Part shown: piece after piece, positions 2,240 to 50,319 of the stretch
How positions within the stretch are numbered: the stretch's first letter is position 1
Layout of the letters: every line of letters begins with the position of its first letter
Source: a virus
Reading direction: 5' to 3' (one strand)
IMG/VR virus record: IMGVR_UViG_3300045988_160427
Length of the DNA: 64,000 bases
The notes under the pieces: model-generated
What the model saw: only the letters and a program-made list of their open reading frames with translations
What the model was told of the DNA's origin: nothing
The model's database searches: none
Position numbers and translations under genes: made by a program

Positions 2240-2665
2240 TCAATTATTTTTTAATATTTCTAAAGCTTTTAAATATCTTTTTTCCAACTTTTCATTCCTT
2301 TTTTTATTTTGTATTCTTTCAAACACTAAATTGTGTTTAATATCTTCTATTTTTACTTTTCGAGCAATTGGATTAGAACAAATATTTTTTATATATTCAA
2401 AATAAGTATCATGTGTTGATTTCGTTAATAAAACCAATGGCTCTATTACTTCTTTTGGAAAATATCCTTCCAACTCTTCTTTGGATACAAAAGTATCTTC
2501 TAAAACATCGTGCAGGATTGCAACACAAATATCTGTTTCATTATTAAATTTTTCTGCTATGTGATATGGATGAAAAATATATGGAACATTACCTTTATCT
2601 TTTTGACCATGATGTGCCTTGTATGCTATGTTTAAGGCTTTATTTATCATTTTGGTATAAATCAT
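2240..2665 (-). CDS. HD-domain phosphohydrolase
   Basis: KAHHGQKDKGNVPYIFHPYHIA ... LHDVLEDT, the H..HD...D metal-binding pattern of HD superfamily hydrolases. Confidence 0.7.
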   Translation of the reverse strand: MIYTKMINKALNIAYKAHHGQKDKGNVPYIFHPYHIAEKFNNETDICVAILHDVLEDTFVSKEELEGYFPKEVIEPLVLLTKSTHDTYFEYIKNICSNPIARKVKIEDIKHNLVFERIQNKKRNEKLEKRYLKALEILKNN

Positions 2666-2667
2666 AT

Positions 2668-2865
2668 TTACTGTCCTTTCTTTATATCGTCTACCACAGT
2701 CATTAAAGCATGAAAACTTTCATACATATTTTCATAAAGATTGGAAGATTCTTCATTTGCAGCCTTTGGATTTAAAAATGCTTCAACATCTTTTATTCCT
2801 TTTTTAGATAAATAAGAGAAAATATTAATATCGTCAACGGAATTAAATAATGATTTTACTTTCAT
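2668..2865 (-). CDS. hypothetical protein (65 aa)
   Basis: ORF with AAAGGAAG RBS upstream of ATG at 2865. Last gene of the leftward block. Confidence 0.4.
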   Translation of the reverse strand: MKVKSLFNSVDDINIFSYLSKKGIKDVEAFLNPKAANEESSNLYENMYESFHALMTVVDDIKKGQ

Positions 2866-3204
2866 ATGAAACTTCCTTTATAATCATATTTACAAGTTTG
2901 TATAATATAAAGGTAGTTTAAGGTTTCTACGATCTTCAGTTCTTAAAAGTGTTTACTCCCTTAAACTTACCTACAAACGTTTGTATACTTACTATAAAAT
3001 ATAAAATAATAAATGTCAAGCATAATTTAAAAATTTTTTTATAATTATAATAATATAAAGGATTTTATATAAATAATTAGAATATATTAATAAAAAAGAG
3101 TAAAATAATTATTTTAAAATTTGTCCAAACGAATATATAAATATATATAATATATATTATATAATATACACGTCTGTACAAATTTCATATTTTATATATA
3201 ATTT

Positions 3205-3290
3205 AATCATGAATGTAATGAATGATTAAATTATATATAAAATAAAATAAATTAATATTTGAATGTAATGAAAATATTAATTTATTTTCA
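3205..3290. promoter_or_regulatory. two copies of 12-mer GAATGTAATGAA (3211-3222, 3261-3272), each inside a 6-bp inverted-repeat context (AATCAT..ATGATT; TTTGAA..TTCAAA)
   Basis: Seen directly. Located in the 520-bp AT-rich divergent intergenic region. Candidate operator or origin-type sites. Confidence 0.3.
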
Positions 3291-3325
3291 AATATATTAT
3301 ATTATATATTATTATATATTTTCTA

Positions 3326-3354
3326 TTTACAAAATAAAAAACATATGATATAAT
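3326..3354 (+). promoter_or_regulatory. sigma-A-type promoter TTTACA-17 bp-TATAAT with extended -10 TG (TGaTATAAT)
   Basis: TTTACA 3326-3331, 17-bp spacer, TATAAT 3349-3354 with TG at 3346-3347. It is 30 bp upstream of the first plus-strand gene (GGAGG RBS at 3374). Confidence 0.6.
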
Positions 3355-3385
3355 CAAGTAAACAAACAACAAAGGAGGTGCGAAT

Positions 3386-3583
3386 ATGCAGGATCAATGG
3401 ATTGAAATGTCTTATAATAGATATAACAGAGATAAAAATAAAGAAATTTTTAATATAGATTCATATAAATATTATTGCATTCATTATTACGATTTTAAAG
3501 AAGATAATTATGAAGATGATTACAATCCCTTACTAAAAGAAATAACTTATAAAGAGGTGAAACTTTTTCTTGAAAAATATTAA
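3386..3583 (+). CDS. hypothetical protein (65 aa)
   Basis: First ORF after the promoter. Strong RBS AAAGGAGGTG. Confidence 0.4.
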   Translation: MQDQWIEMSYNRYNRDKNKEIFNIDSYKYYCIHYYDFKEDNYEDDYNPLLKEITYKEVKLFLEKY

Positions 3584-6053
3584 TATTTTACAACTACAGG
3601 CCAAAGATGTTGTTTTTAATGATTATAAAGTAAAATCATTGAAAAGATATAGTGCTGTATTTGATTATTCTTTAGAAAGTATAAAAATGGAAGAAATTCA
3701 TCATAAAGTTTTTAGAAATAATAAATTTATTTTTCAAGAGAACGGAAAAAATTATACTAATGACATTATTTCAATTGCCTTTGATTATCGTCATAAGAAT
3801 TATTCCATATTTGAACTTAGAAATAAATTATATAAAGATGGCTTCTATTGTGAGGGGAAACATTATGTTAGATACAAAAGATCAAGTGGAAGTGCCAGAG
3901 TTGGTAAATGTTTATTTATTCGTGAAGAATTATATTATCCAATGATGAAATGGTCTAATATGGGTTTATCTTTCAAGAAAGACAGTGAAGTAGATTTAGC
4001 TTCTATGGAGGCTTATATTGCTTTGACCACGTCAAGTATTATAGGTACTATACAAATTTATCCAGAAAATATTTTATTAATAGATGACTATGAATCAATT
4101 TTCGAAGATGAGGCTGTAGTTGTAGAAGTTGAAAATAATAAACTTCGTGCTAATAATAAAAAAACTATTATTAAAAATTCTATTTGGGATGGTCAAAGTT
4201 TATTAGATGAATCTTTGTTTAATGGTGAATACAAAGATAAAGGAATGCTATTGTTAAGAAATCGTTTCTTCAAATCTTGTTGTTTTAATACAAAAATACA
4301 AAAATTTTTCAAAGATCATAAAATTACTTCAATAAATCAGTTAAAAGGAAAAACAATAGCAAAAGATATTTCTCAAATCAAACTTATAACTACTCCTTCC
4401 AGTATTAAATTTTTAAAATTTGGAACTTATGATAACTTTTTAGAAAGAATGGATTCATTGTTTGGTGTTGTTAAATATGATAAAAAAACACATTTTATGG
4501 AGGGCGAATTAGTACAAACTCATTATCAACTATTGAATACATTAGAATTCACAAGAGAAGACATGGAAAAATTTTTAGAAGATTCTTTTGATTATTTAAA
4601 AAAATTAAAAAGAGATTTAAGTGTATTTAGATATCAATTAAAAATTAAAAATAATATATTAAATAGATTTCAATTACAATCAATGAATGATTTTATATAT
4701 CAAATGTTAATTTTAAATGATGATATTAAAAAAACATCCATGTTTTACAATTTCAAAAAAGAATTTATAAGAGCTTATATTGCCAATATGCGGAAAGGTC
4801 ATATTCTTGTGAATGGTAATTATTCTACGATGATGGGTAATGGGTATGAAATGTTATTAGAATCCATTGGTAAATTTTTAGGAGTAAGTGTGATTGAAAA
4901 AGAGCATGTAATGACTGTAAGATTCCCTTCCGAAAAAGAATTATTAGGAATTAGAAGCCCTCATATAACAATGGGGAATATATGGGTAGTTAAAAACAGA
5001 ATTTATTCAGAATATTTAAAATATTTTAATTTAAGTGAGCAAATTATTTGTGTGAATGCAATAGAAAGTAATTTACAAAATAGATTAAATGGATGCGATT
5101 ATGATAGTGATAGTATTTTAGTAACTGATAATAAAATTTTAGTTGAAAAAGCTAAAATGAACTATGATAAATTTTTAGTTCCAGTACCAAATATACCTTC
5201 TACCAAAATTAAAAGGTATAATAATTATAATCATAAAAATGATTTAGACGACAAAACTTCGGTGAATAAAATAGGGGAAATAGTTAATTATTCTCAAGTA
5301 TTAAATTCTTTTTTATGGGAACTAAAAAAAGAAGGCAAAGATTATAGTAGTGTTTATAATGATATTTGCATATTAGCTGTAATGAGTGGTATAGAAATTG
5401 ATAAAGCTAAAAAAGAATATTCGATTAATAATGAAATGGCATTAAAAGAATTGAAAACTAAATATAAGTATATTATTGATAAAAAACCTATGTTTTTTAG
5501 TTATTTACCAAATAAATTTATTTTATTCGATCAAGAAATTTTATCAAAATGTTATAGAAACTATGAAACCTCTATGGATTATTTAGAAAACTCTATAAAC
5601 AAAAATCAAAAAAAAATTAGAGCGCCTAAAGAAGAAAAAATAACGATTGGTGAATTAGTTAATAATAATGATTACATCATTGAAAGGAAAGATAAAATAA
5701 AAGCTAGGAGAGTAATTAAAGAGTGCGAGATATTAAAAAATAAAAGTGATTTAGTATGGAGCAATCCTACTTTAAGTTCTCAAGAAAAATATTTTACTAC
5801 TTTAGAATTACAAGACGATTTTATTAAGAAAATAAAAAATAAAAAATTAACAAAAGAAGTTATATGTTTTATTCTTAAAAATCTTTCTACTAAAATACAG
5901 AGGAAAATGTTATTTACTCTTTATCAAACGAATCCTCAACAGGTAGAAGATTTATTAATGGATAAAAAGAAAAAAATAGAAATAATAAAAAGAGATGATG
6001 ATGGCGATATTATTTTATATCAAAAAAAGTTTAAAAAAATACAAAAACAATAA
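3570..6053 (+). CDS. large protein of unknown function (827 aa) with ...NGCDYDSDSILV... acidic loop
   Basis: Long uninterrupted ORF at the head of the late operon. DxDxD-type motif DYDSD near residue 505 and GNYSTMMGNGYEML near 420. No Walker motifs seen. Confidence 0.5.
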   Translation: MKNINILQLQAKDVVFNDYKVKSLKRYSAVFDYSLESIKMEEIHHKVFRNNKFIFQENGKNYTNDIISIAFDYRHKNYSIFELRNKLYKDGFYCEGKHYVRYKRSSGSARVGKCLFIREELYYPMMKWSNMGLSFKKDSEVDLASMEAYIALTTSSIIGTIQIYPENILLIDDYESIFEDEAVVVEVENNKLRANNKKTIIKNSIWDGQSLLDESLFNGEYKDKGMLLLRNRFFKSCCFNTKIQKFFKDHKITSINQLKGKTIAKDISQIKLITTPSSIKFLKFGTYDNFLERMDSLFGVVKYDKKTHFMEGELVQTHYQLLNTLEFTREDMEKFLEDSFDYLKKLKRDLSVFRYQLKIKNNILNRFQLQSMNDFIYQMLILNDDIKKTSMFYNFKKEFIRAYIANMRKGHILVNGNYSTMMGNGYEMLLESIGKFLGVSVIEKEHVMTVRFPSEKELLGIRSPHITMGNIWVVKNRIYSEYLKYFNLSEQIICVNAIESNLQNRLNGCDYDSDSILVTDNKILVEKAKMNYDKFLVPVPNIPSTKIKRYNNYNHKNDLDDKTSVNKIGEIVNYSQVLNSFLWELKKEGKDYSSVYNDICILAVMSGIEIDKAKKEYSINNEMALKELKTKYKYIIDKKPMFFSYLPNKFILFDQEILSKCYRNYETSMDYLENSINKNQKKIRAPKEEKITIGELVNNNDYIIERKDKIKARRVIKECEILKNKSDLVWSNPTLSSQEKYFTTLELQDDFIKKIKNKKLTKEVICFILKNLSTKIQRKMLFTLYQTNPQQVEDLLMDKKKKIEIIKRDDDGDIILYQKKFKKIQKQ

Positions 6054-6950: not shown

Positions 6951-8132
6951 ATGGAGATAAATAATGATTCTTCTATTTTTTCTAAAATTTTTAATTTAAC
7001 TCAGAGTGTAAGAAAAGGCGAAATTACATATGAGGATTATGCTTCTTTATTGGATAGTAATTATTCTATAGATACGTTGCGTAAGTTTTCTTATGTTTTT
7101 TCTGAAATTTTTTCGAATATAGATCAAGAAAATATAGACTTATCTACTGAATTAAAAGATTTAAAAGAAGAAATAATTAAAGAACGACAAAAGCTACAAT
7201 TGGTCAGAACTGATTATAATGCTTCTATTCGTTATGATGCAAGAAAAGAATTATTTAATGAAATGGTTTTAGATTCTATAAATAAATTAAAACCTATCGA
7301 AGTTAAAAAAACCGTCTTTTCTAATAGAACTCCTGAGAAAACAGGAGTTTTGTTTATATCTGATGAACATTATGGGAAAGATTTTAAACTTTATGGAGTT
7401 TATAATGAAGTCGTGAATGAATATTCGCCTAAAATATTTAAAGAAAGAATGTGGAATCTTTTATCAAAAATTAATAATGATATTTTTGATATGGGATATG
7501 AAAAATTAATAGTGTGTGATTTAGGGGATAATATAGAAGGAATTTTAAGAGCTACAAATTCATTGCGTAAATTAACAGTAGGAGTAGTTGATTCAATAAT
7601 AGAATATAGCGAATTTATTTCTATATGGTTGAATGAATTATCTCAACGTTTGGAAATACCAATAGAATATCATTTAAATGGAGGAAACCATGATATTTTA
7701 AGAATATTAAATTCTAAACCTGATTTCGATGAAGAAAATGTAGGTAAATTAATAAATCACTATATAAAATTGAGATTAAAAGATAATAAAAATATTTTAA
7801 TAGGCTCTTATTCTGATATTGGTTGTCATAATTTGTACGGTGTTAATATGTTAACCTATCATGGGGCTGGTAAAGATTTGAGTTCTGAAATCTCTTTCTT
7901 TGAAAATTATTATCAATTAGATATAGATTTATTAGTTTGTGGGCATTTACACACTGAAAAAGAAATAGCTTTAGGAAGTGGATATTTAGGTAACAGATTG
8001 GGTATAGTTTGTCCTTCTATTATGGGCCCAGATGATCATAGTAAAAAAATCAGAAAAACCAGTAGACCCGGGGCTAAATTTATTTTATTTAGCAAGGATG
8101 GAATTGATTTAGAAAAAACATACTATTTATGA
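6951..8132 (+). CDS. calcineurin-like metallophosphoesterase (SbcD/Mre11-like phosphoesterase fold) with N-terminal coiled coil
   Basis: Motifs DEHYG (D-x-H), CDLGDN (GD), GGNHD (GNHD/E), CGHLH (GH). Confidence 0.7.
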   Translation: MEINNDSSIFSKIFNLTQSVRKGEITYEDYASLLDSNYSIDTLRKFSYVFSEIFSNIDQENIDLSTELKDLKEEIIKERQKLQLVRTDYNASIRYDARKELFNEMVLDSINKLKPIEVKKTVFSNRTPEKTGVLFISDEHYGKDFKLYGVYNEVVNEYSPKIFKERMWNLLSKINNDIFDMGYEKLIVCDLGDNIEGILRATNSLRKLTVGVVDSIIEYSEFISIWLNELSQRLEIPIEYHLNGGNHDILRILNSKPDFDEENVGKLINHYIKLRLKDNKNILIGSYSDIGCHNLYGVNMLTYHGAGKDLSSEISFFENYYQLDIDLLVCGHLHTEKEIALGSGYLGNRLGIVCPSIMGPDDHSKKIRKTSRPGAKFILFSKDGIDLEKTYYL

Positions 8133-8157
8133 GAAAAGGGTAAACGGAGGATAAACA

Positions 8158-9048
8158 ATGGCCACAAAAAAGATAAAATTATTAGATAATTATTGTGTTT
8201 ATTGTGGGAGAGAACATGCGGTTGAAGATTTTTATAAATCTTTTAATCCTTATCATACTAGTGGATATATTCCATATTGTAAAGAAAGCGCGAGAAAAAT
8301 TTATGATAATTATTTGGTGAAAACAGGTAATGTTGAATCTGCTTTATGGTATACATGTTCTGAAATTGGAATACCATTTATAACAAAAGTATATAAAGCT
8401 GTATTAGAAAGAGTGAAAAACTTAGGTCCTGGAAAAGATTATAATTATATAGGAATTTATATTACTTTTCTACACAGATTAAAAACTAAAGTGGATAAAT
8501 GGGATACTTTTTATAGAACCGATGTTTCTTTAGACCAAGTATCTAGTGTTTCTAAAAGTGAAGAAGCAATAAACAAAGAAACACAAAGACTGGAATTAGA
8601 TTGGGGAAAACAAACTGTAGAAGATTACCAATTTTTGGAATATAGATGGGATGTATATATGGAACGTTTCAAAGATGTAGAGGTTCCTCCCGCGCAAGAG
8701 ACTTTATATAGACAATTATGTTTGGTTGAATTACGTAAAAGAAAAAAAGAGGAAAAAGAAGAATTAACAGATAAAGAGCAATCTATGATATTAAATTTGA
8801 TGAAAATATTAAAAATAGATAATTTTTCCAATAATGATGAAAAAACATTAGTTGAATCTCTTTTAGAGAGACAAATTTGGGAACAGGAAAATACTGATCC
8901 TTGTGAAATAGTTGATAAAGAAAAATATAGAGATTATTGCGACATAGAAAAAAAATGGGGAAAAAATATTTTAAGAGCTGTAAAAAATTTATTGGTAGGA
9001 AATCGAGAATATCCTTCTATTACAGAGATGGAAGATGAAAAACAATGA
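8158..9048 (+). CDS. hypothetical protein with N-terminal Cys4 (CVYCG...YCKE); position fits a small terminase subunit/DNA-recognition protein
   Basis: Immediately upstream of and overlapping the large terminase start. No recognisable motif beyond the zinc-finger-like cysteines. Confidence 0.3.
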   Translation: MATKKIKLLDNYCVYCGREHAVEDFYKSFNPYHTSGYIPYCKESARKIYDNYLVKTGNVESALWYTCSEIGIPFITKVYKAVLERVKNLGPGKDYNYIGIYITFLHRLKTKVDKWDTFYRTDVSLDQVSSVSKSEEAINKETQRLELDWGKQTVEDYQFLEYRWDVYMERFKDVEVPPAQETLYRQLCLVELRKRKKEEKEELTDKEQSMILNLMKILKIDNFSNNDEKTLVESLLERQIWEQENTDPCEIVDKEKYRDYCDIEKKWGKNILRAVKNLLVGNREYPSITEMEDEKQ

Positions 9049-10292
9049 ATTTAAGTGGGATAATTAATGAAAGATTAAGGAAAAGAAATAAGAAAACTAA
9101 AATTTTATCTGAGCAAGAAAAGAAAGAAAATATTATTAAATGGGCAACATTTTATAGAAGAAATATGAACATATATGCAGAAAGAAGATTGGGTATCAGA
9201 TTGCATCCATTTCAACATATTATGATTTATTTGATGAGTATTAGTCAAACTTTTTTTGCGATTTGTACTCGTGGTATATCTAAAACTTTTATAGTTGGAT
9301 TGTTTGCTGTGTGTGAAAGTATGCTTTACCCATATAGCGAAGTTGTAATTACTGCGACCACGATACCACAAGGTGCGGTTATGGTTAAAAATAAAATAGA
9401 AAACGAAATTGTGAAAAAGCTTTCACCTTTGTTACTGTATTTATATGAAAATAATCAAATAAAATTTTCTTATAATGACAATGAGATTAAAGTTGAATTT
9501 CTTTTTAATGGTTCTATTATTAGAGTGTTGCCGAGCGGAGATCAATCTCGTGGTTATCGTGCTACCGTTTTAATTTATGAAGAATGTAGATTATTAAAGA
9601 AAAATATGGTAGACTCAGTTTTTTCTCCCATGTCGCATCCAAGACAGGCTAAATTTATGACAAGAGAAAAATATGCGGGAGATAAAAGATGGCAAGAAGA
9701 AACTATATCTATTTATATTACATCCGCTAGAATGAAATCAGAGTGGTTTTGGACAACATTCAAAGAAGTTGTCCAAAAATGTTATAATAGCAAAAGGATA
9801 GTTGAAAATTTCTTTGCGGCAGATATTTATACAGCTATTGAATATGGTTTAAAAACGAAAGCTGATTTTGAAAAATCTAAGTCTCAAATGAGTGAACTAG
9901 ATTTTAGAATGGAAATATTAAATGAAATGATAGGGGAAGCAGAAAATGCTTTTTTTACATTAGAAATGTTTCGCAATAATCAGGTTTTAACAGTTCCTTT
10001 TGTTCCTCCTAATGTTAGGGATATATTAGGAGGGGAAGATGATTATATAAAAGAAAAAGCAATTAATGAATATAGGTTGCTTTTTATAGATTTTGCTTTC
10101 GCTAATACGACAACCAATCAAGAAAACGACAATAGCATTTTAGGGTGTATGTCTTTATTTTATAAAAATAAGAAAATTTATAGAAATGTTGATTATATTA
10201 CAACACACCCTGCAAGTGATAGCCCAGGGATGGAGAAAAAAATTAGAGAATTTTATTGGGATTACAATGCTGACTTTATCGTGATGGATTAA
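9045..10292 (+). CDS. terL: terminase large subunit, exon 1 (ATPase domain plus start of nuclease domain); ORF stop at 10290-10292 lies in the intron
   Basis: LHPFQHIMIYLM...AICTRGISKTF is a Walker A-like loop. LLFIDFAFANTTTNQENDNSI is the first Asp motif of a TerL RNaseH-like nuclease. ORF is only 415 aa and is followed by an intron. Confidence 0.8.
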   Translation: MNLSGIINERLRKRNKKTKILSEQEKKENIIKWATFYRRNMNIYAERRLGIRLHPFQHIMIYLMSISQTFFAICTRGISKTFIVGLFAVCESMLYPYSEVVITATTIPQGAVMVKNKIENEIVKKLSPLLLYLYENNQIKFSYNDNEIKVEFLFNGSIIRVLPSGDQSRGYRATVLIYEECRLLKKNMVDSVFSPMSHPRQAKFMTREKYAGDKRWQEETISIYITSARMKSEWFWTTFKEVVQKCYNSKRIVENFFAADIYTAIEYGLKTKADFEKSKSQMSELDFRMEILNEMIGEAENAFFTLEMFRNNQVLTVPFVPPNVRDILGGEDDYIKEKAINEYRLLFIDFAFANTTTNQENDNSILGCMSLFYKNKKIYRNVDYITTHPASDSPGMEKKIREFYWDYNADFIVMD

Positions 10293-11462
10293 TTAAGGTT
10301 CCTTTTTATGGTAACATAAATCGAATAACGCATTTAACTGCTGGAACACCCTTAGAGATTTATAAACTACAACGTGACAGTGAAATAATGTGAGCGTGAA
10401 TGTTAAAAATTATAAATATTGGGCAATCAGCAACCAAGCTCCGAACAGGAGAAGGCTCAACGACTATCGAAAATTCTATATGGAAGAAGTAGAGTACATC
10501 ATAAGCGATTGATGATGGAAACGGTGCGCTTTATTTTTTAATAAAGAAGATATAGTCTAACCTTATGTGAAAGCATAAGAAAAAGTGTAGCGAGCTTTTG
10601 TAATAATAATGTAGTAGTATTGCTTTGAAAAGGTGAGTGATATGAAATTATATGAAATTTTAGATGGAAAGAAAAAGGAGAAATCTTTTTCGTGTATTTA
10701 CATGTGGGAAAATTTATATAATAAGAAAAAATACATTGGACAAACTCAAAATTTTTATACCAGAATGGCACAATATTCATATAAAGGCGGCAATATTTAT
10801 TTGAATCGTGCAATAGAGAAATATGGGATAGATAATTTTGAAATTACTGTATTAGAATATGTATCTAAAGAATATTTAGATGAAAGAGAATAATATTGGC
10901 TAGATTTTTATAAATCTTATTTATTTTTAAATGGGTATAATATATGTCGCTATGCGAGTAGTACGCGCGGATATAAACATACTCAAGAAGTGAAAAATAA
11001 ATTAAGGAAGATGAAAATTGATAACCCAGTTTGTTTATGCGGAGAAAAGAATCCAATGTATGGTAAAAAGCATTCATTAGAATGGAGAAAACAACAGTCT
11101 GAAAAAATTAAAGAAAAATGGGAAAAAGATGAAGAATATAGGAATTTTTGGCACGAAAAAATGACGGGCGAAAATAATTATTTTTATGGAGTTCATTTAA
11201 CAGGTGAAAAAAATCCTATGTTTGGTAAAAAACATTCCGAACAGACGCGAAAAAAGATTTCAGATTCAAAAAAGGGTAAGTTTTATGGGAAAACAGTTAA
11301 AATACAATGTGTAGAAACAGGGAAGATATATATTAGTATTTCCCAAGCATCTAAAGAGTTGAATGTAAATATCAATGCTATATACTCAATACTGGATAAA
11401 CCTAATAGAACTTGTAAAAAATTACATTTCATCAAAGTTTAATATAAATTACTACATTTTCG
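10290..11462 (+). mobile_element. group I intron (IA-like core) interrupting terL, carrying a GIY-YIG homing endonuclease gene in its 3' (P9) extension
   Basis: P4 tgctgg 10339-10344 pairs with cagca 10428-10432. P6-like hairpin at 10439-10451. P7 gactat 10462-10467 pairs with atagtc 10552-10557, inside an S-like AAGATATAGTCTAACC. P9 hairpin cttatg-tgaaag-cataag at 10562-10579. Proposed P1 is exon GGAU with IGS GUUCC (10298-10302); P10 is CUU with AAG. Boundaries are inferred. Confidence 0.65.
10642..11442 (+). pseudogene. GIY-YIG homing endonuclease (I-TevI-like: GIY-YIG domain, NUMOD3 repeats, C-terminal HTH) interrupted by an in-frame TAA at 10891-10893
   Basis: N-part CIYMWENLYNKKKYIGQT...NRAIEKYGIDNFEITVLEYV. 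After the TAA the same frame continues YWLDFYKSYLFLNGYNI...TRGYKHTQEVKNKL, then GEKNPMYGKKHS / GEKNPMFGKKHS (NUMOD3 x2) and IYISISQASKELNVNINAIYSIL (HTH). ORFs 10633..10893 and 10990..11442 are in the same frame (both mod 3 = 1). Confidence 0.7.
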
Positions 11463-12041
11463 CTTCGCAACGGTGGAGAAGTGTTGTATAACAATTTAAC
11501 CAATCTATACAATCATCCCGAAAGAGGGAATGCATGGAACCCTCATGGGTTTACTGTATCGAATGAAATCGGAATACACGTTGTTCCTGACACTAAATTA
11601 GCAGATTTGAGAAGTCGTGCAATAGATAGAGAGGCCATTCCAGCAATTGTTCCGATTATTGGAACATCTGATTTAAATAGTATGATGTGGATGGATTTGC
11701 AGTTGCGATTGCGCAATAAAGAAATAAGATTTTTAGTTGATGAAATGGAGTATCAACAAATTTTAGAAGAAACTTCAAGATACTTTAAAATGACTTCTGA
11801 GCAACGCATAATAGAAAGATTGCCTTATATCCAAACATTACTATTGGTTAATGAAGCAATAAATCTTTCTCCTTCTTGGAAGGATGGAAAAGTTAAATTG
11901 TCTGAGCCGAGAAGTGGAATGAAAGATAGAATTGTGGCATGTTCTTATGGAAATTGGATAGGAACATTATTAGAAAATAAACTTTCAAAGGAAGATAATT
12001 ATGGAGAAATGGATATTTCTCAATATCAATTGGTTTTTTAG
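11463..12041 (+). CDS. terL: terminase large subunit, exon 2 (rest of nuclease domain); exon start is inferred, the ORF is open from 11448
   Basis: Same frame as exon 1 (9045 and 11481 both mod 3 = 0). The candidate 3' splice site 11462|11463 is set by the frame requirement (intron length mod 3 = 0), a G at 11462, and a 3-bp P10 pairing (CUU with AAG). Acidic residues (LVDEMEYQQ) are consistent with a TerL nuclease C-half. Exon 1 + exon 2 is about 608 aa. Confidence 0.6.
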   Translation, partial: LRNGGEVLYNNLTNLYNHPERGNAWNPHGFTVSNEIGIHVVPDTKLADLRSRAIDREAIPAIVPIIGTSDLNSMMWMDLQLRLRNKEIRFLVDEMEYQQILEETSRYFKMTSEQRIIERLPYIQTLLLVNEAINLSPSWKDGKVKLSEPRSGMKDRIVACSYGNWIGTLLENKLSKEDNYGEMDISQYQLVF

Positions 12042-12044
12042 GGG

Positions 12045-13634
12045 GTGAGAGAATTGAGCAATGATAATCAACCATTAACAAAAGAACAGGTTTATGATGT
12101 TCTTCAAATGGCGCAAAGTATGTATGGTGTTGGTTCTATGTATGGTATTCAGGGTGCTTATACGCCTGAATTATCTAATCAAGTTCTTTTGAATTTGAAT
12201 AACAATGCTTTAACACCAACTTATAAGAGGATATTGGAAGCATTAGCAAATTATAAAGAAAGACAACATGAAACACAAGCATTTAGCGAATTTATGGAAA
12301 AATTCGATATGATTTATGCAAGAGCGGTGGAGTATTATTCTAATTTACTTGCTTTTGATTTGCGCTATTCTTGTATAAATGCTTCTGAGAATGATTATGT
12401 TGATGGAACAGTTGAAAAAGCAAAAAGCTATGTTAATAAATTTTTAAATAGTTTTAATTATAAATCAGAATTTCAAAAAATAACCAGAGAAGTTCTTAGA
12501 CATGAAACGTGCTATGTGTGGTTTAGGTCTGATTTAGCAACAGGAGATAAGAATCCCAAATTTGCAATTCAGCTTCTACCCCAAGATAGATGCAAATTAA
12601 CAAGATATTGGGAAAATGGTTTATTATTTGATTTTGACATGACTTATTTCTTAATGCCTGGTGTTGATATAAACGGATATGACCCCGTTTTTAAAAAATA
12701 TTTCAATGAGGTATTTATAAGCGATACATTTAAAAATTATATACCTTCTAATCAGTTTAGTAAAACGGGAAATTTTGCATATTGGATACAAACAACGCCA
12801 CCAGATGGAGCATGGGTTTTTAAGCGTGATATGTCTAATTTTGTTGAAGTCCCGTTTTTGGCACCGTTTTTAAAAAATGTTATTAGGAATGATGAAATTA
12901 GAAAGTTGCAATATGATAAAGATTTTCAAAGTGCTTATGCAATTCTCGCTGGTGAAATGAGGATGTTTGATAATGCAAAATCTGGCACACAGAAAGACCA
13001 ATTTTCTGTTGACCCAGGCACATTAGGAAAATTGTTATCATTAGTAAAATCTGGATTAAATAATAATATTAAATTAGCTGCTATGCCTGTAGAAAAACTA
13101 TCGTGGTTGCAATATAAAGATGATAACCCTGATATGGTTGATACTTATTATAAAAATTCAGTAGCCCCAGCAGCTAGTGCAAGTCGTTTAATTTATTCTA
13201 CTGATAAAATGAGCAATATGGAAATTGAAAATGCTTTAATGTCAGATTATCAGGTTGTGGCAAAATTATATTTACAATTTAATATGTTTTTAAATTATTA
13301 TGTAAATAGATATTTAGCGACTAAAAGAATTAAACTACGTTTTGATTTTCGTTTTGAAGGAAGTATTTTCCCGTTTGAGAGGAAAAATAGGCAAGACCAA
13401 ATTATGGCGTTGGCAGACAAGGGCATAACCTTAAATCCTTCTGCTTTTGCAAGTGCATATGGATATACGCCTATGGAATTTGAAAACATGCTCAATGAGT
13501 CTTATTATAGTGATAGATGGAATAAATTGGTACATCTTATTTCTATTCATACCATTGGGCAAAATAAAGGTGGTAGACCCATGATAGACAATGGAGATTT
13601 AACTCCGTCAGGAGAAGCAAACAGAAATAGTTAA
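12045..13634 (+). CDS. portal protein (by position and size, 529 aa)
   Basis: Immediately follows terL. Size typical of portal proteins. No motif-level confirmation. Confidence 0.5.
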   Translation: MRELSNDNQPLTKEQVYDVLQMAQSMYGVGSMYGIQGAYTPELSNQVLLNLNNNALTPTYKRILEALANYKERQHETQAFSEFMEKFDMIYARAVEYYSNLLAFDLRYSCINASENDYVDGTVEKAKSYVNKFLNSFNYKSEFQKITREVLRHETCYVWFRSDLATGDKNPKFAIQLLPQDRCKLTRYWENGLLFDFDMTYFLMPGVDINGYDPVFKKYFNEVFISDTFKNYIPSNQFSKTGNFAYWIQTTPPDGAWVFKRDMSNFVEVPFLAPFLKNVIRNDEIRKLQYDKDFQSAYAILAGEMRMFDNAKSGTQKDQFSVDPGTLGKLLSLVKSGLNNNIKLAAMPVEKLSWLQYKDDNPDMVDTYYKNSVAPAASASRLIYSTDKMSNMEIENALMSDYQVVAKLYLQFNMFLNYYVNRYLATKRIKLRFDFRFEGSIFPFERKNRQDQIMALADKGITLNPSAFASAYGYTPMEFENMLNESYYSDRWNKLVHLISIHTIGQNKGGRPMIDNGDLTPSGEANRNS

Positions 13635-42437: not shown

Positions 42438-43814
42438 ATGGCTAGACAGACCTTAAAACTAACATCCCCCTTAATGAAAGGGGACGATGTTAAAGAGTTT
42501 CAAAACCTGGTAACAAACAGAGGTTTTAGTTGTGGTACTATTGATGGTAAATATGGCGAAAAATCTGTAAGTGCTTGTAAAAAATTTCAATCTTCTGCTG
42601 GCTTATCTGCCGACGGCATTTGTGGCCCTGATACATGGAATAAATTAGAGGGTAGACGAATGTTAAAACTAACATCCCCCTTAATGAAAGGGGACGATGT
42701 TAAAGAGTTTCAAACAAAAATCACAAATCATGGATATAATTGTGGTTCTATTGATTCTATGTACGGTGAAAAAGCCAAAGCTGCGTGCATTTCTTTCCAA
42801 AAAGCTAAAGGATTAAGTGCGGACGGGATTTGTGGTGATAAAACTTGGGCTGCATTAGATGGGTCTACATCATCTTCTGGAACAAGTGGAAGAAGATTGC
42901 TAAAAAAAACTAGCCCTTTGATGAAGGGAGATGACGTAACAGAGTTTCAAAATCTTGTAAAATCAAAAGGTTTTGACCCTGGAACCATTGATGGAAAGTA
43001 TGGTGACAATAGTGTAGCAGCTTGTAAAGAATTTCAAAGTTATGCGGGGCTATCAGTAGATGGACAGTGTGGGACAAACACGTGGGCAGCATTAGATTCT
43101 GATATTGCACCATATTCACCTTCTACATCAGGTTCTAACAGCTCTATTGGTGAAACAGAAATGGAAGTGCGCCAAAATGTCGTAAATGAAGCAAAAAAAT
43201 ATTTAGGATATAAGGAATCAGATGGTTCTCATAAAAAGATTATAGATATTTATAATGGACATTCTCCTTTAGCTAGGAACTATAGGGTTAAATATACAGA
43301 TTCTTGGTGTGCTGTTTTTGTCTCAGCAGTGGCTATTCAATGTGGTTTGACAGATATTATGCCTACTGAATGTAGTTGCGGGCGTATGATTGAACTTTAT
43401 CAAAAGCTAGGTTGTTGGGAAGAAAACGATGCCTATGTTCCCAATATTGGTGATATTATTATGTATGATTGGGATGATAGTGGAAAGGGTGATAATACAG
43501 GATGGCCTGACCACGTTGGTATTGTAACTGAAATTTCTGGCAATAAGATGAAAATCATTGAGGGCAATAAGTCTGATTCTGTATCTTATAGAACAGTAAC
43601 AGTAAATGCTAAAGATATTCGCGGGTATTGTCTGCCAAATTACGCGAGTAAAGCGGGCACAAGTGAAACTTCTATTAGTTATACTGTGCAAAAGGGAGAC
43701 ACTTTATCGTCTCTTGCAAAAAAATATAACACAACGGTTGATAAAATTTGTTCAGATAATAATATTTCAGACGCAGATAAAATTTATATTGGACAAGTGA
43801 TTGTAATTAAATAA
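42438..43814 (+). CDS. endolysin: 3x PG_binding_1 repeats + CHAP (Cys-His amidase/peptidase) domain + C-terminal LysM
   Basis: Three LKLTSPLMKGDDV.EFQ...G...DG.YG....A...FQ...GLSADG.CG..TW repeats. CHAP Cys in YTDSWCAVFVS and His in GWPDHVGIV. LysM is YTVQKGDTLSSLAKKYNTTVDKICSDNNI...IYIGQVIVIK. Confidence 0.85.
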   Translation: MARQTLKLTSPLMKGDDVKEFQNLVTNRGFSCGTIDGKYGEKSVSACKKFQSSAGLSADGICGPDTWNKLEGRRMLKLTSPLMKGDDVKEFQTKITNHGYNCGSIDSMYGEKAKAACISFQKAKGLSADGICGDKTWAALDGSTSSSGTSGRRLLKKTSPLMKGDDVTEFQNLVKSKGFDPGTIDGKYGDNSVAACKEFQSYAGLSVDGQCGTNTWAALDSDIAPYSPSTSGSNSSIGETEMEVRQNVVNEAKKYLGYKESDGSHKKIIDIYNGHSPLARNYRVKYTDSWCAVFVSAVAIQCGLTDIMPTECSCGRMIELYQKLGCWEENDAYVPNIGDIIMYDWDDSGKGDNTGWPDHVGIVTEISGNKMKIIEGNKSDSVSYRTVTVNAKDIRGYCLPNYASKAGTSETSISYTVQKGDTLSSLAKKYNTTVDKICSDNNISDADKIYIGQVIVIK

Positions 43815-43816
43815 AA

Positions 43817-43858
43817 ATAGGGTAGATTGAGTTTATCTCTTTCTACCCTATTTTTTTT
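43817..43858 (+). terminator. rho-independent terminator (tagggtaga...tctacccta + T8); potentially bidirectional at the convergence point
   Basis: 9-bp stem at 43818-43826 / 43842-43850, then TTTTTTTT at 43851-43858. A-run on the upstream side. Confidence 0.7.
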
Positions 43859-43876
43859 GGTTGTTGAATATATCAA

Positions 43877-44014
43877 TTATTTTTTATTATAATTATTTAC
43901 CTTATTTTTATTAATTTGTTTTTTGCTTTTTTCTAATTCTTTTTTAGTTTTTCTTTCTACGCCAAAAGTTTCACCTAATACATTGTCAATTTTTACCATA
44001 TCAATAGCTTTCAT
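43877..44014 (-). CDS. small Lys-rich hypothetical protein (45 aa)
   Basis: ATG at 44014 with TAGGAG RBS 6 nt upstream. Below the ORF-track size cutoff. Confidence 0.3.
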   Translation of the reverse strand: MKAIDMVKIDNVLGETFGVERKTKKELEKSKKQINKNKVNNYNKK

Positions 44015-44273
44015 GATAAACTCCTATTTTTAATTTTGAAATAAGTGGAAATTTTTTGACCGTTTAATGGTGCTGGGTTCCATTCCACTTCTCTTTTAAA
44101 ATCGAATATTCGCATTCCTTCTTCAAATGTTATATTTAACACTTTTTCTACTCTCTGTGTCTCTATTCATTCACCTGAAAATAATTTTGTTAAAACATTT
44201 ATCTTTTCTTCTTCTTCCACTTTATTGTTTTTATTTTTTTCATTTAACTTTGACAAATTATATTGATTCCTCC

Positions 44274-44792
44274 TTATGAATTCTGGCAATTCATTTCAAA
44301 ATAACTGCAATAATCATTTACATAAAAGTTTAAACTATATGAAGCACCTCCTTCATTATCAGTAGATATATAATCATTAGTGCATTCATAATTTTTAAAA
44401 TGTTTACATTCTTTGCAACGTCCTATAGGAGGAGTTGTACGATTGTTCCACGCACGCAATGCGGATTCTTTGTTATAGTGTGAACCACCTACACAAAGTC
44501 CGCATCCTCCTGCTAAATAATCACAAACCACTACAAATTGTTTAGACATTATTTCAAAATTTATATTATCTCGATCAATATATTCTACATTAGCTACGGT
44601 ATATATTTTGGCTACAGACATTCCACAGCAAGGACATTTTAATATAATTCCTTGTTGCGTACACTTCTCTTGAGATTCTTTATCCCCCAATAATGCCTTT
44701 CGTTCTAGTTCTGTCATGTGGAATCCTCTCTTAATCCATTTTTGCCCCACAGTTTGGGCAGTAGTTGTAATTACCACTGATAAATCCATCAT
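44274..44792 (-). CDS. Cys-rich hypothetical protein
   Basis: 172-aa ORF with multiple CxxC pairs. Confidence 0.4.
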   Translation of the reverse strand: MMDLSVVITTTAQTVGQKWIKRGFHMTELERKALLGDKESQEKCTQQGIILKCPCCGMSVAKIYTVANVEYIDRDNINFEIMSKQFVVVCDYLAGGCGLCVGGSHYNKESALRAWNNRTTPPIGRCKECKHFKNYECTNDYISTDNEGGASYSLNFYVNDYCSYFEMNCQNS

Positions 44793-45075
44793 CTTCTATT
44801 CCACATATTGAGCATGTCCAGCACTCATTCCATAAACTATCAGTTGTGTGGGTGTGTTCCCATCTTCCATGCATAACAGGGGCAATATCAATAGTTGTCT
44901 GCTCCTCTATGGCTTGGATGATTCCGTTTGTAAACATCCCATAATCTATAGAGTTTAATGTTGGATGTCTTAACAAATAATGATGATCTTTAATTATTTT
45001 TATCAATTCTTCCGCATCAATCATCCTCATTGTGCATTCTCCTTCTTTGCCATTTCCATCATCAACCTTGCACAC
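44731..45075 (-). CDS. hypothetical protein with C-terminal zinc ribbon (CWTCSICG...CPNCG)
   Basis: ORF, Cys4 pattern. Confidence 0.35.
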   Translation of the reverse strand: MCKVDDGNGKEGECTMRMIDAEELIKIIKDHHYLLRHPTLNSIDYGMFTNGIIQAIEEQTTIDIAPVMHGRWEHTHTTDSLWNECWTCSICGIEDDGFISGNYNYCPNCGAKMD

Positions 45076-45317
45076 GCATGGGCAAGGTGGTTTTCTTTCT
45101 CCTCATCCTTTGGCAACTTCATCCCTGATTTCTGATTTCTGTATAAACAAAGATGGCGGATTGCATGGGCGAGGTTGTCTTGTGTACTTACTTTATCCCA
45201 GTTTCCCGTTCCGTGCTTTTCAAATCCTTTTGCGCTTACCTCTGCAATCATCGGTAAGGCAGGAAGGATATATTCCCATACCTCAAAGTCAATTTTGTTT
45301 TGCTTGGCTTCACTCAT
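45027..45317 (-). CDS. hypothetical protein
   Basis: ORF, no confident motif. Confidence 0.35.
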   Translation of the reverse strand: MSEAKQNKIDFEVWEYILPALPMIAEVSAKGFEKHGTGNWDKVSTQDNLAHAIRHLCLYRNQKSGMKLPKDEEKENHLAHACARLMMEMAKKENAQ

Positions 45318-45681
45318 TTTTCTTATTCTCCAGTACTTTTATTGCATCCTCTCTTGAAAGAAAAACTGTTTTTCCTATTGAGTTGCTAACAAAATTCCCG
45401 CCATAGTGTCCACCGCTTTCATAATTTCCACGACAAGAGAACACTATCGTAAATCCATCCTGTTTTATTTTCATGTTCGATACTTTACATTTTATTATTT
45501 CTTTTTTCCTTGTGTATTCTGGCTTTTTTGTGATTACATAAACTATGTCATCTATTTTGCATGGTATTTCTATGAAATTTGATTTATCTAAAAAAAGAGA
45601 ACATGTTTTACAAATCGATGGCATAAACGGAATTAACGAAAACTTGCATATTTCATAATGTATGCAATTTTCTTTTGTCAT
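45310..45681 (-). CDS. hypothetical protein
   Basis: ORF. Confidence 0.35.
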   Translation of the reverse strand: MTKENCIHYEICKFSLIPFMPSICKTCSLFLDKSNFIEIPCKIDDIVYVITKKPEYTRKKEIIKCKVSNMKIKQDGFTIVFSCRGNYESGGHYGGNFVSNSIGKTVFLSREDAIKVLENKKNE

Positions 45682-46121
45682 TTTCCTGTACTCCCAAAAC
45701 CATTTTTTCCTCTATTTGTCGTATCTAATGTTTCTACTTCAGCAGGAGTAATTTTTAAGTAAGGGAGAATAATAAGTTGAGCAATTCTTTCGTCAGGCTC
45801 AATTATTTGAGTTTGTTCCGAATGATTATGTAGAGGCACCATAATTTCTCCTCGGTAATCAGAATCAATAATTCCTACACAATTAATTGGAGCTAATCCT
45901 CTTTTTGTAGAAATACCACTTCTGGCTACAAGGGCTCCAAAATAACCATTTGGGATACTTACCGCAATTCCTGTGGGCACTTTAATAGTTTCATGTGGGC
46001 GAATCATAGTTGTTTTATTAATGTTTGCATATAAATCCGCTCCTGCTGAATTTTCTGTTGCTACTAAAGGTTTTTTTGATGTGACAGATGTTTTTTTGAA
46101 TTGTAAAATAGTTTGTTCCAT
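45678..46121 (-). CDS. dut: dUTP diphosphatase (trimeric dUTPase)
   Basis: dUTPase motifs AGADL (motif I), ARSGIS (motif II), GIIDSDYRGEI (motif III). Confidence 0.85.
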   Translation of the reverse strand: MEQTILQFKKTSVTSKKPLVATENSAGADLYANINKTTMIRPHETIKVPTGIAVSIPNGYFGALVARSGISTKRGLAPINCVGIIDSDYRGEIMVPLHNHSEQTQIIEPDERIAQLIILPYLKITPAEVETLDTTNRGKNGFGSTGK

Positions 46122-46162
46122 GGTTCTGTTCCTTTCTTTTTAAATAATTATTTTGTATGTTT

Positions 46163-46191
46163 ATATTATCAAAACTATATTAATATGTCAA
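46163..46191 (-). promoter_or_regulatory. candidate sigma-A promoter on minus strand (TTGACA-17-TAATAT) upstream of dut
   Basis: Reverse complement of 46186-46191 is TTGACA; of 46163-46168 is TAATAT; spacer 17 bp. Confidence 0.4.
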
Positions 46192-46203
46192 TGCCATAAC
46201 AAG

Positions 46204-46257
46204 TTTTTTTTAATAAAAAAATAAAAAAGCAATTATTCTAAATGAAACAATTGCTTT
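46204..46257 (-). terminator. rho-independent terminator on minus strand (aaagcaatt...aattgcttt, then T-rich run)
   Basis: 9-bp inverted repeat at 46226-46234 / 46249-46257 with 14-nt loop. Minus strand then reads TTTTATTTTTTTATT. Confidence 0.45.
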
Positions 46258-46273
46258 AATTATTATTTTTTAT

Positions 46274-46462
46274 TTAATTTTGAATTTTATAATATAATCC
46301 ACATTCACAATATCCTTCTTCTTGACTTTCGATAAACTCTTTACACATACATTTGGTTTCTGGGGTTTTTTTAATTTTACATAAGCAGTAATTATTATTT
46401 TTTTTCAATTGTTTTTTAAATTGTTTAACAAAGTCTGTGTCTGGGTTCATAAGAATAATCAT
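46274..46462 (-). CDS. small protein with three CxC pairs (CLC...CMC...CEC), metal-binding?
   Basis: 62-aa ORF. Confidence 0.35.
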   Translation of the reverse strand: MIILMNPDTDFVKQFKKQLKKNNNYCLCKIKKTPETKCMCKEFIESQEEGYCECGLYYKIQN

Positions 46463-46920
46463 AATATTTTTTTATTTTCCTTTCTGAATTGATGATTAAT
46501 ATTTTCCAAGTAGGTGTGATTTTTCATATTTACTATTTTATAAGTCTTGCCACGATCACAATAATTTCCTATTCGTATATAATCTAAATTTTTAGCTATA
46601 GATTCAAAATGCTTTATTTCATATTCGTTTTTAGTATGATAACAACTATAATAAAAAGTCTTATATCCCTCTTTTTTACATAATAATACTACTTTTTCTA
46701 AATCGTCTTGGTTTATTTCTGTATAAAATAGGTCATGATATATCTCCCAAAAACAAACACAAGTAATTTTATCTTTTTTATGTTTTTCTAATATAGAATG
46801 AATATCTTCTAAAAGTTTATTGTGTTCACAAGAAGACACTCTTTCTTGGACAGTGTTAATAATTAGAACCTTTTCTTTTGGTAGAATATCTTTAATAAAA
46901 TATGATGAATATGTAAGCAT
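46459..46920 (-). CDS. NrdG-like paralog lacking the N-terminal radical-SAM cysteine cluster
   Basis: Shares ITCVCF and LDY(L/I)(K/R)IG(R/N)Y motifs with the adjacent NrdG but has no CxxxCxxC. Confidence 0.45.
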   Translation of the reverse strand: MLTYSSYFIKDILPKEKVLIINTVQERVSSCEHNKLLEDIHSILEKHKKDKITCVCFWEIYHDLFYTEINQDDLEKVVLLCKKEGYKTFYYSCYHTKNEYEIKHFESIAKNLDYIRIGNYCDRGKTYKIVNMKNHTYLENINHQFRKENKKIL

Positions 46921-46935
46921 TTATTACTCCTAATT

Positions 46936-47463
46936 TTATTTATTATAAAATAAAGATGTTATATCATATATTTTATAATTTCTTGTGTTGTTGCTATCAA
47001 AATGTACAATTTTATAAAAAATTTGATTTGTGTTTTTTGAATTTAATCCCCCTTTTAGATAATTGTATCTTCCTATTTTTAAATAATCTAAATATTGCAT
47101 GTAAGTATTAAAATGTTCTAATTCTTTTTCAGCTTCTCCTAAGGTATGATAAGGTTTGCCATTTCCATATCCAGAATATAAACAAGTTTTTAATTTATGT
47201 TTTTTACAAATTTTCAAACATTTTATTAGGTCTGATTCATTATGATCTCCCCCAAAGAAACACACGCATGTTATTAAATTTTCATATAGTTTTATAATGT
47301 TTTCAAGATTGTCCAGCAATGGTATTCCTTCATCTTTCCAAAGGAATGGAGAGTGGCACCCCTTGCATTTATAGGGGCAACCACTAACATTTATTCCCAA
47401 TGTTACTTCGTTAGGAACCTCTTGAAAAACTACAAAGTATGATTCATACTTTAGCATTATCAT
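46936..47463 (-). CDS. nrdG: anaerobic ribonucleoside-triphosphate reductase activating protein (radical SAM)
   Basis: GINVSGCPYKCKGCHSP has the CxxxCxxC cluster in the NrdG context, adjacent to nrdD. Confidence 0.8.
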   Translation of the reverse strand: MIMLKYESYFVVFQEVPNEVTLGINVSGCPYKCKGCHSPFLWKDEGIPLLDNLENIIKLYENLITCVCFFGGDHNESDLIKCLKICKKHKLKTCLYSGYGNGKPYHTLGEAEKELEHFNTYMQYLDYLKIGRYNYLKGGLNSKNTNQIFYKIVHFDSNNTRNYKIYDITSLFYNK

Positions 47464-49672: not shown

Positions 49673-50319
49673 ACGCTTTGAAAATTCCTCGCGGCGGCTG
49701 GCTGATTTAGCGAATAAACCACTTGACTAAATTTGTCATGAATAATTGAATGAATGGTTCTTTCTCTTCCTATTGCGTTTACTACTACATCTGGATTTAA
49801 GTAATAATTATCTCCATATTCTTTTCTGATAAAATAATCCATATACATTAAAAATTCTGGTGTACTTACAGCTCCTGCAAATTGCGAAGCAATAGCAAAA
49901 ACCAAGTTAACAAAACTTCCGCAAAATGAATCTAAATTTTTTGGTGCTGTAGATAAACCTCCGATATTGGTTAAACCATCAAATAAAAATGGATACATAG
50001 TAATACTTACACAATAAGGCAACATTGGATTGGTTTCGTCATGTCTATAAATTTCATGACCATCCAAAGAACGAATATACTCCTCTGCTAACTCTTCACC
50101 ATAAAGCTCCGTAATTTTCTCAATCATTAAAAGTCTATTAATACCTATGGCATCTTTTTTATACAATTCTCCAGTACAGGTAGTTACATTTTTATTTTCC
50201 ACATTTGCATTCGAATCAACTTGACTTCCGCTTGCGGCATTTGAAGCTACTCTATAGGAATTAATAAAATCAACATAGGAACGATATTTTTCTTTATAGT
50301 TCAATAAAAGATTTGACAT
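49666..50319 (-). CDS. nrdD: anaerobic ribonucleoside-triphosphate reductase, exon 1 (N-terminal third); stop at 49666-49668 lies in the intron
   Basis: 217-aa ORF directly upstream of the HNH gene and nrdD C-terminal ORF, same strand. Combined length about 640 aa fits NrdD. Assignment is by context. Confidence 0.6.
   Translation of the reverse strand: MSNLLLNYKEKYRSYVDFINSYRVASNAASGSQVDSNANVENKNVTTCTGELYKKDAIGINRLLMIEKITELYGEELAEEYIRSLDGHEIYRHDETNPMLPYCVSITMYPFLFDGLTNIGGLSTAPKNLDSFCGSFVNLVFAIASQFAGAVSTPEFLMYMDYFIRKEYGDNYYLNPDVVVNAIGRERTIHSIIHDKFSQVVYSLNQPAAARNFQSVN

Follow-up and report, generated by a model that had tools for sequence, protein, structure and literature searches.

A probable mobile group I intron in the large-terminase gene of an uncultured phage, with a GIY-YIG endonuclease gene broken by a stop codon

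Group I introns that carry a gene for their own mobility are known from several phage genes. In the thymidylate synthase gene td of phage T4, the open reading frame (ORF) of the homing endonuclease I-TevI is located in the P6a loop of such an intron, and the enzyme cuts td 23-25 nucleotides (nt) upstream of the insertion site. Introns with endonuclease ORFs are also reported in the gene for the large terminase subunit (TerL, gene terL) of Twort-like staphylococcal phages, the ORFs being of the HNH type according to PMC6409932, and terL introns are mentioned in further phage papers. The case described here is found in the 64,000-nt viral record IMGVR_UViG_3300045988_160427 of IMG/VR, the whole of which was analysed and is called the window. 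Positions 10290-11462 are very probably a mobile group I intron within terL, with splicing predicted from the sequence to join 10289 to 11463. It is a known kind of element, and no description of this particular intron was found in the literature. In a comparison made by description, it is like the Twort-like cases in host gene and in type of element, both being introns that carry an ORF resembling a homing endonuclease; the TerL family and the phages are different.

A preliminary description of this DNA had proposed a terL gene split by a 1.17-kb group I intron. This proposal is borne out by a covariance-model match, by gapless alignment to homologues and by covariation in the ribozyme core. 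The parts of the interrupted gene, in window coordinates, are the following:

10290-11462, + strand: predicted group I intron, 1,173 nt; RF00028 match, with same-site introns and intronless alleles in relatives
9045-10289, + strand: terL exon 1 (codons 1-415), from the ORF table; 54% identity to the TerL of Enterocloster phage PMBT24
11463-12041, + strand: terL exon 2 (codons 416-607 and stop), from alignments to uninterrupted homologues

In the ORF table, the ORFs 9045-10292 (415 amino acids, aa) and 11481-12041 (186 aa) lie in one phase. Between them is a stretch without a long ORF (10293-10632, 340 nt), followed by an endonuclease-like frame; phase, length of this stretch and intron size are all as previously described. 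The intron starts with UAAUUAAGG, and its first three bases are the stop codon at which the exon-1 ORF terminates; its last bases are ...UUUUCG with the terminal G at 11462, after which exon 2 begins CUU CGC AAC GGU GGA GAA, encoding L-R-N-G-G-E. The predicted ligated-exon junction is ...GUGAUGGAU joined to CUUCGCAACGG..., and the product reads ...ADFIVMD-LRNGGEVLYNN.... A full-length TerL of about 608 aa had been foreseen; the full-length protein stands, and its size is 607 aa.

The preference for the 10289/11463 splice was well placed, as the protein is gapless at this point against three uninterrupted sequences: PMBT24 TerL (...ADYVVLDLRNGGEVNYND..., with ...ADYVVLD-LRNGGEVNYND... at the junction) and the intronless alleles L003 (89% identical) and L010 (98% identical), which have the same continuous junction sequence. 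L010 encodes P0001, a protein of 607 aa with no interruption, and hundreds of uninterrupted TerL homologues of about 610 aa were found. The insertion point is directly after the codon of an invariant Asp (D415), in a conserved D-L-R-N-G-G-E motif of which D415, R417, G419, G420 and E421 are invariant among 50 homologues. Two other 3' sites, 11484 and 11487, had been put forward as phase-compatible; they were rejected because R417, G419, G420 and E421 would be deleted. An intein was rejected as well, since translation in the terL frame would meet stops from the very first codon of the insert, which moreover encodes a ribozyme. The U-G wobble at the 5' splice site and the terminal intron G are kept in all eight same-site alleles.

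The Rfam model Intron_gpI (RF00028), whose use on this region had been suggested, matches 10281-10579 with 58.2 bits (gathering threshold 50, E-value 7.7e-14, model positions 1-253) when 10150-11600 (about 1.4 kb) is scanned alone. Rfam scans of the whole window, in gathering and E-value modes, returned tRNA only and missed both this intron and a second one described below, each of which comes up only if a segment of 1-1.5 kb is searched by itself. For the terL intron this was due to speed filters; since the local scan finds it, the whole-window nulls are not evidence of absence. A Megablast search of the region against GenBank phages gave zero matches.

The identity of the host gene was drawn from a fold search, because sequence searches of Pfam and of the PDB gave no terminase. 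Pfam had zero family matches on both exons, so that the proposed check against terminase hidden Markov models came out negative and TerL is visible only by fold. PHROGs gave a weak terL match (E-value 7.5e-4), and zero terminase matches came from PDB sequence searches, whether the query was one sequence or a profile of 50. An AlphaFold2 model, built from a 50-sequence alignment headed by P0001 (the 98%-identical intronless protein), has a mean predicted local distance difference test score (pLDDT) of 85.8 and a two-domain fold, an ASCE ATPase and an RNase H-like nuclease. In a Foldseek search of the PDB with this model, the top 25 matches were all large terminases at probability 1.00, with T4 gp17 (E-value 6.4e-16), D6E, Sf6 gp2, HK97 and T7 among the top ones. 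The best tblastn matches in GenBank phages (55-58% identity) were proteins of SPbeta-like and Enterocloster phages annotated as terminase, and PMBT24 has an uninterrupted 632-aa "terminase large subunit" adjoining its portal gene. The gene order is the same here, with a portal gene (phrog_2739, 2e-36) directly downstream at 12045-13634; upstream, gene 8158-9048 overlaps the terL start through ATGA. The terL assignment is therefore sound, although it rests on the modelled fold and not on Pfam.

Exon 1 encodes the ATPase domain, whose motifs include a Walker A-like CTRGISKT and a Walker B-like LIYEE. It also encodes the beginning of the nuclease domain, up to D415. The motif FIDFAFANTTTNQENDNSI, which the preliminary description had pointed out, is present in it. 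The ORF had also been said to end just after this first nuclease aspartate motif, and here the description has to be corrected: about 66 residues separate the aspartate of FIDFAF from the stop, and the residue next to the stop is D415, another invariant Asp. The model places the junction at the C-terminal end of strand 411-415, inside a confidently folded nuclease domain.

The same position bears on the possibility of a truly split TerL, in which the RNA would stay unspliced and the 415-aa protein and a 186-aa piece started at GTG 11481 would be separately translated and assemble, in the manner of genes split by free-standing homing endonucleases. The ORF finder does list this GTG start with GGUGGAG upstream of it, and public gene callers report the 415-aa product (P0005). 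However, GGUGGAG corresponds to the codons of the invariant G-G-E and is also found in intronless alleles, and a protein started at 11481 would drop L416-E421. The break would moreover fall inside a beta-strand/helix unit of one domain, between the invariant D415 and R417-E421, and it is flanked exactly by a complete covarying ribozyme. A split TerL is considered extremely unlikely.

The predicted intron RNA has the helices listed below:

10286-10289 (exon GGAU) with 10298-10301 (guide GUUC), + strand: P1, U10289-G10298 wobble at the 5' splice site
10295-10297 (AAG, P1 loop) with 11463-11465 (exon-2 CUU), + strand: P10, 3 base pairs (bp)
10305-10320, + strand: P2 hairpin, 6 bp, GUAA (GNRA) loop
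10329-10334 with 10523-10528, + strand: P3
10339-10344 with 10427-10432, + strand: P4
10349-10351 with 10421-10423, + strand: P5
10372-10375 with 10394-10397, + strand: P5a
10377-10379 with 10389-10391, + strand: P5b
10434-10435 with 10454-10455, + strand: P6
10439-10442 with 10448-10451, + strand: P6a
10462-10467 with 10552-10557 (AUAGUC), + strand: P7; J8/7 and P7 3' strand are GAAGAUAUAGUC
10475-10478 with 10490-10493, + strand: P7.1
10497-10502 with 10512-10517, + strand: P7.2
10530-10535 with 10540-10545, + strand: P8
10562-10568 with 10573-10579, + strand: P9, GAAA loop
10581-10585 with 10595-10599, + strand: P9.1, family-conserved loop UGUAGCGAG
10608-10618 with 11448-11458, + strand: long-range helix, 11 bp

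Checked base by base in the window, P1 to P9.1 (including P5a/b, P6a, P7.1 and P7.2) and P10 are all complementary. The P4, the P6 hairpin, the P7 and the P9 that had been read by eye coincide with the Rfam alignment, and P1, with its U-G pair at the splice site, and the 3-bp P10 are as they had been described.

Comparison within the ribozyme family supports this structure. A conserved 43-nt core pattern was found in 58 IMG/VR stretches, from which 19 non-redundant representatives were aligned. RNAalifold, run on these without a prior structure, recovered P3, P4, P5, P5a/b, P6, P8 and P9 and found compensatory changes at 25 of 45 pairs. Under an explicit structure with the P7 pseudoknot, standard pairs fill 92.4% of cells, against 78.7% with shuffled columns (a level of 92.4% is attained by none of 500 shuffles) and 36-41% with slid partners; double changes occur in 131 cells, against 45 in the control. 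Of the 47 pairs in this structure, 25 have compensatory changes. P3 is paired in 100% of the alignment, with five of its six pairs covarying. P4, P6 and P7 are nearly invariant in the 19 relatives and, for this reason, give no covariation evidence either way.

The same insertion site, after the Asp of D-L-R-N-G-G-E, is occupied in the Enterocloster phages CB457P1, CB457P2 and CB473P1-3 (OP172753-7). The intron of CB457P1 (RF00028, 93.6 bits) belongs to the same ribozyme family and has a GIY-YIG endonuclease in the same placement, but is longer (1,274 nt), with a larger P5 extension, a P1 and a P10 of 5 bp each and an intact endonuclease. From the window to CB457P1, the guide sequence changes in step with the exon, both in P1 (GGAU/GUUC to UGGAU/GUCCA) and in P10 (CUU/AAG to CUCAG/CUGAG). 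Both sides have changed in three of the four Watson-Crick pairs of P3, and the P7.2 stem is wholly replaced (CAUCAU/AUGAUG by GGAAAC/GUUUCC) around an unchanged loop, AAGCGAUUG. The P2 loop is GCAA in L008 and GUGA in CB457P1.

Subgroup IA was reportedly defined by Michel and Westhof through two extra hairpins, P7.1 and P7.2, which follow the 5' strand of P7 and precede the 3' strand of P3. Two hairpins are found at this place in most of the 19 relatives, and by this definition the terL intron would be of subgroup-IA-type (IA2-like) architecture. The hairpin after P9 has a GUAGCG loop common to most family members. A candidate partner for this L9.1 loop (CUAC/CCAC in the P5 extension) was considered, and no consistent covariation was seen by eye across the family.

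Relatives of the window form an allele series at the insertion site, with introns of 320-1,274 nt. L003 and L010 are intronless; L008 has an ORF-less intron of 320 nt; L005, L006, L007 and L009 have the intron with an intact endonuclease; and in L004 the endonuclease gene has an independent 121-nt deletion. L008 lacks the long-range helix 10608-10618/11448-11458 and everything between its arms, a difference of 853 nt. The chance that the interruption, or the stop codon in its endonuclease gene, is an artefact of assembly or sequencing is close to negligible. The data are metagenomic, and the nonsense codon is one C-to-T difference from near-identical contigs; for the intron itself, an artefact is ruled out by its recurrence at the identical site: six or more independent IMG/VR contigs have it, and six isolated Enterocloster phages have a diverged form. 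A sequencing error could still account for the single-base stop, against which the independent decay of the same gene in L004 argues.

The alleles are also informative about a decayed, non-splicing intron, which would make terL a pseudogene and the phage defective or a prophage remnant. The broken endonuclease gene, the weak P1, P10 and P7.1 and the modest covariance-model score are what decay would lead one to expect; the conservation of the ribozyme is not. Its 352 nt (10290-10641) are identical in all five endonuclease-bearing alleles, although their endonuclease genes differ at up to 47 positions, and the eight differences between L008 and the window are all located in loops and junctions or preserve pairing. 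Both exons are intact and, outside the conversion tract described below, essentially identical to the intronless allele. A phage cannot do without TerL, and the packaging and head genes next to it show no damage. A decayed intron is accordingly regarded as very unlikely.

The gene carried by the intron is placed in its 3' part:

10642-11442, + strand: I-TevI-like GIY-YIG endonuclease gene, 266 codons if read through, after P9.1

The frame runs from 10642 to 10890, meets an in-frame TAA at 10891-10893 (codon 84) and continues from 10894 to 11442, with a Shine-Dalgarno-like AAAGGUGAG 5 nt upstream of its ATG. The endonuclease reported earlier is present, then, and what does not hold is a single intact ORF. 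Read through, the product matches the Pfam families GIY-YIG (PF01541, 3.9e-8) and NUMOD3 (PF07460, 1.1e-21), is similar to the catalytic domain (1LN0/1MK0, E-value 3e-5) and the DNA-binding domain (1I3J, E-value 1.7e-3) of I-TevI, and is 44% identical to the intron endonuclease at the corresponding position in CB457P1. The TAA comes directly after the Glu aligned with the catalytic E75 of I-TevI, so translation stopped there would leave out the last part of the catalytic domain, NUMOD3 and the helix-turn-helix DNA-binding part. L005, L006, L007 and L009 have CAA (Gln) at this codon and an intact ORF, and L007 differs from the window at six positions over the whole intron. Because these near-identical contigs have CAA where the window has TAA, the endonuclease appears to be inactivated in this genome, and the copy is best called a pseudogene of the GIY-YIG family. 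The endonuclease genes of the window and L005 have 44 differing codons, 29 of them synonymous and 15 non-synonymous, and the changes are mostly at third positions. Together with the identical ribozyme, this pattern is what one would expect if the ribozyme is functional, if purifying selection acts on the endonuclease in the population and if its inactivation here is recent. The intron of the window is probably splicing-competent and, because of the nonsense mutation, no longer mobile alone.

The past mobility of the element is suggested by the exons. Aligned with the terL of L010, the spliced terL of the window differs at 5 positions in nt 1-1220, at 49 in nt 1221-1419 and at none in nt 1420-1824; with the junction after nt 1245, the divergent tract extends from -25 to +174. 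Beyond the tract there is almost no difference among the window, L005 and L010 (window to L010, about 99.7% identity). Inside it, the window is 95-96% identical to the other intron-bearing alleles. To the L003/L008 lineage, the tract of the window is 88% identical, against 80% for the rest of the gene, and the tract of L010 is 80% identical, the same as the L010 background. Since the tract of the window is closer to this lineage than its background and that of L010 is not, the window's tract is the imported one. On the divergent background of L008, identity to the window climbs to 98% just around the junction. The codons of the insertion site differ synonymously: GAC/CUUAGA, GAU/UUGAGA and GAU/UUACGU in intronless alleles, and GAU/CUUCG(C/U) in all intron-bearing ones (the slash marks the junction). 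The simplest reading is that an L010-like genome gained the intron and about 200 nt of donor exon by co-conversion, in endonuclease-driven homing. The 5' edge of the tract at -25 is close to the cleavage distance of I-TevI, which is an analogy and not a result.

The likeness to td of T4 goes further. Both introns have a group I architecture with P7.1 and P7.2 and an endonuclease in which a GIY-YIG catalytic domain is combined with NUMOD3 repeats and, at the C-terminus, a domain for DNA binding; both interrupt an essential gene within a block of highly conserved codons that is probably catalytic, and the presence of the intron is accompanied by exon co-conversion. The host gene is different, terL here and thymidylate synthase there, and so is the place of the endonuclease gene, which in the window follows P9.1 in a 3' extension closed by the long-range helix. 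The endonuclease itself is distant from I-TevI (E-value 3e-5) and truncated by the stop.

Several observations weigh against a mobile, self-splicing intron at this locus. The splicing of terL RNA is predicted from sequence, and the RF00028 score is just 8 bits over gathering, in a match that default filters miss. The window copy is at the AT-rich, weaker end of the family: P1 is weak (4 bp, two of them G-U), P10 has only 3 bp, and P7.1 is short (4 bp) and AU-rich, with the isolated minimum-free-energy fold preferring another pairing. The truncated endonuclease makes mobility of this copy on its own unexpected. D415 is a putative catalytic acidic residue by its invariance and its strand position in the model. 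The mosaic tracts come from metagenome-assembled contigs, which are possibly chimeric, though several independent contigs agree.

For a mobile group I intron in terL, the following course of events is proposed. The terL pre-mRNA would fold into the P1-P9 core, and an external guanosine held in P7 would attack after U10289, itself held by the P1 U-G wobble. The long-range helix would close the loop containing the endonuclease gene and return the 3' splice site to the side of the core, where the freed 3'-OH of exon 1 would attack after G11462, with the 3-bp P10 aligning exon 2. Self-splicing of this kind would join codon 415 (GAU, Asp) to codon 416 (CUU, Leu), and the 607-aa TerL would be translated. 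The intron would have spread by homing, an active endonuclease cutting an intronless terL near the insertion site, and repair copying in the intron along with flanking exon sequence. In this genome, the endonuclease gene would later have gained the CAA-to-TAA nonsense mutation.

Besides terL, a second gene of the window, nrdD, appears to be interrupted by a group I intron, which belongs to the same family:

48675-49672, - strand: predicted nrdD group I intron, 998 nt; exons 49673-50319 and 47444-48674

It was detected with a nhmmer profile of the family (E-value 5.9e-14), which was used for intron searches in place of a custom covariance model, and by a local RF00028 match of 43.9 bits, below gathering (E-value 1.1e-9). 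An HNH-like ORF (48841-49572) is located in the P5 loop. P7, GACCAU/AUGGUC, is a compensatory variant of the P7 of the terL intron, the P9.1 loop carries the family motif CGUAGCG, and the predicted P1 is GCGU/GCGC with a U-G wobble. The predicted splice, 49673/48674, would give ...ARNFQSV-FWNIAYFD... and an NrdD of 625 aa, to which the Pfam family NRDD aligns as one continuous match (3e-93); tblastn against phage nrdD genes that have no interruption crosses the junction in single pieces. The nrdD (sunY) gene of T4 also carries a group I intron. The two are alike in that an intron with an endonuclease ORF splits a gene for anaerobic ribonucleotide reductase; the likeness is by host gene and ORF only, the ORF of the window being HNH-like and placed in the P5 loop. 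The remaining long gaps between coding regions, 2600-3620 and 43700-46500, were also scanned with Rfam and gave zero matches.

Further insertions were seen in related phages. The terL of CB457P1 (L002, OP172753.1) has an additional in-phase insertion of 279 nt (4014-4292) between the equivalents of G170 and E171, a site without insertion in the window. There, exon AGAGGU 4008-4013 can pair with GCCUCU 4038-4043 so that a U-G falls at the junction, and G is the last base of the insert. By these features it resembles a group I intron of small size and lacking an ORF, yet Rfam gave no match to it even at E<=1. The ribozyme family is widespread, the 58 IMG/VR viral-contig stretches (L011-L068) matching the exact 43-nt core pattern. 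In L011, L017 and L025, copies of it are found at other positions of other TerL-like genes; because several copies sit elsewhere in such genes, terL is a recurrent target. For the tape-measure protein of CB457P1, PMC11035940 reports two ORFs with an unrelated ORF of 157 aa between them, and this split may be another intron or endonuclease insertion. In Prevotella phage Lak-A1 (MK250015-18, about 457634-458398), the NrdD junction query is found in two pieces over 765 nt instead of one of about 520 nt, which hints at an insertion near the corresponding region.

Around terL (window 6951-9048 and 12045-13634), the near-identical L010 has genes with YonJ_CC, YonG_N and YonD_N domains, and two HU-like genes are located upstream. 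Because these SPbeta-type domains surround terL, the phage is SPbeta-like in its packaging module. The source is an SPbeta-like Firmicute phage, probably of gut origin; a host scan of the genome collection returned four distant matches only, to metagenome-assembled genomes.

When the intron goes unrecognised, gene callers give fragments of 415 and 186 aa instead of a TerL, as in P0005 and the GenBank records of CB457P1, and in OP172753-7 the pieces of terL are labelled hypothetical proteins with no intron feature. Such fragmented calls break terminase-based phylogeny and classification. The PMBT24 paper makes no mention of introns and reports a low TerL identity to CB457P1 (PMC11035940), which unannotated introns may explain. 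Since whole-window Rfam scans missed both introns of the window, AT-rich phage introns are likely under-counted by routine pipelines.

For the biology of these elements, a single site displays the life cycle of a homing endonuclease: the empty site, the site invaded and co-converted, decay by nonsense mutation or deletion, and loss of the ORF. Uncultured gut-type phages thereby offer a clear example from nature, and knowledge of group I introns is left unchanged by it. It is also conceivable, though unlikely, that the intron is an active weapon in this phage population and not a passive passenger. In that case, the endonucleases of L005, L006, L007 and L009 would attack terL in intronless relatives that infect the same cell, converting or excluding them, and the synonymous recoding in intronless alleles (GAC/CUUAGA, GAU/UUGAGA) would be selected resistance. 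The copy in the window would then be a protected but disarmed survivor, and the allele series would make the arms race directly testable in gut phages.

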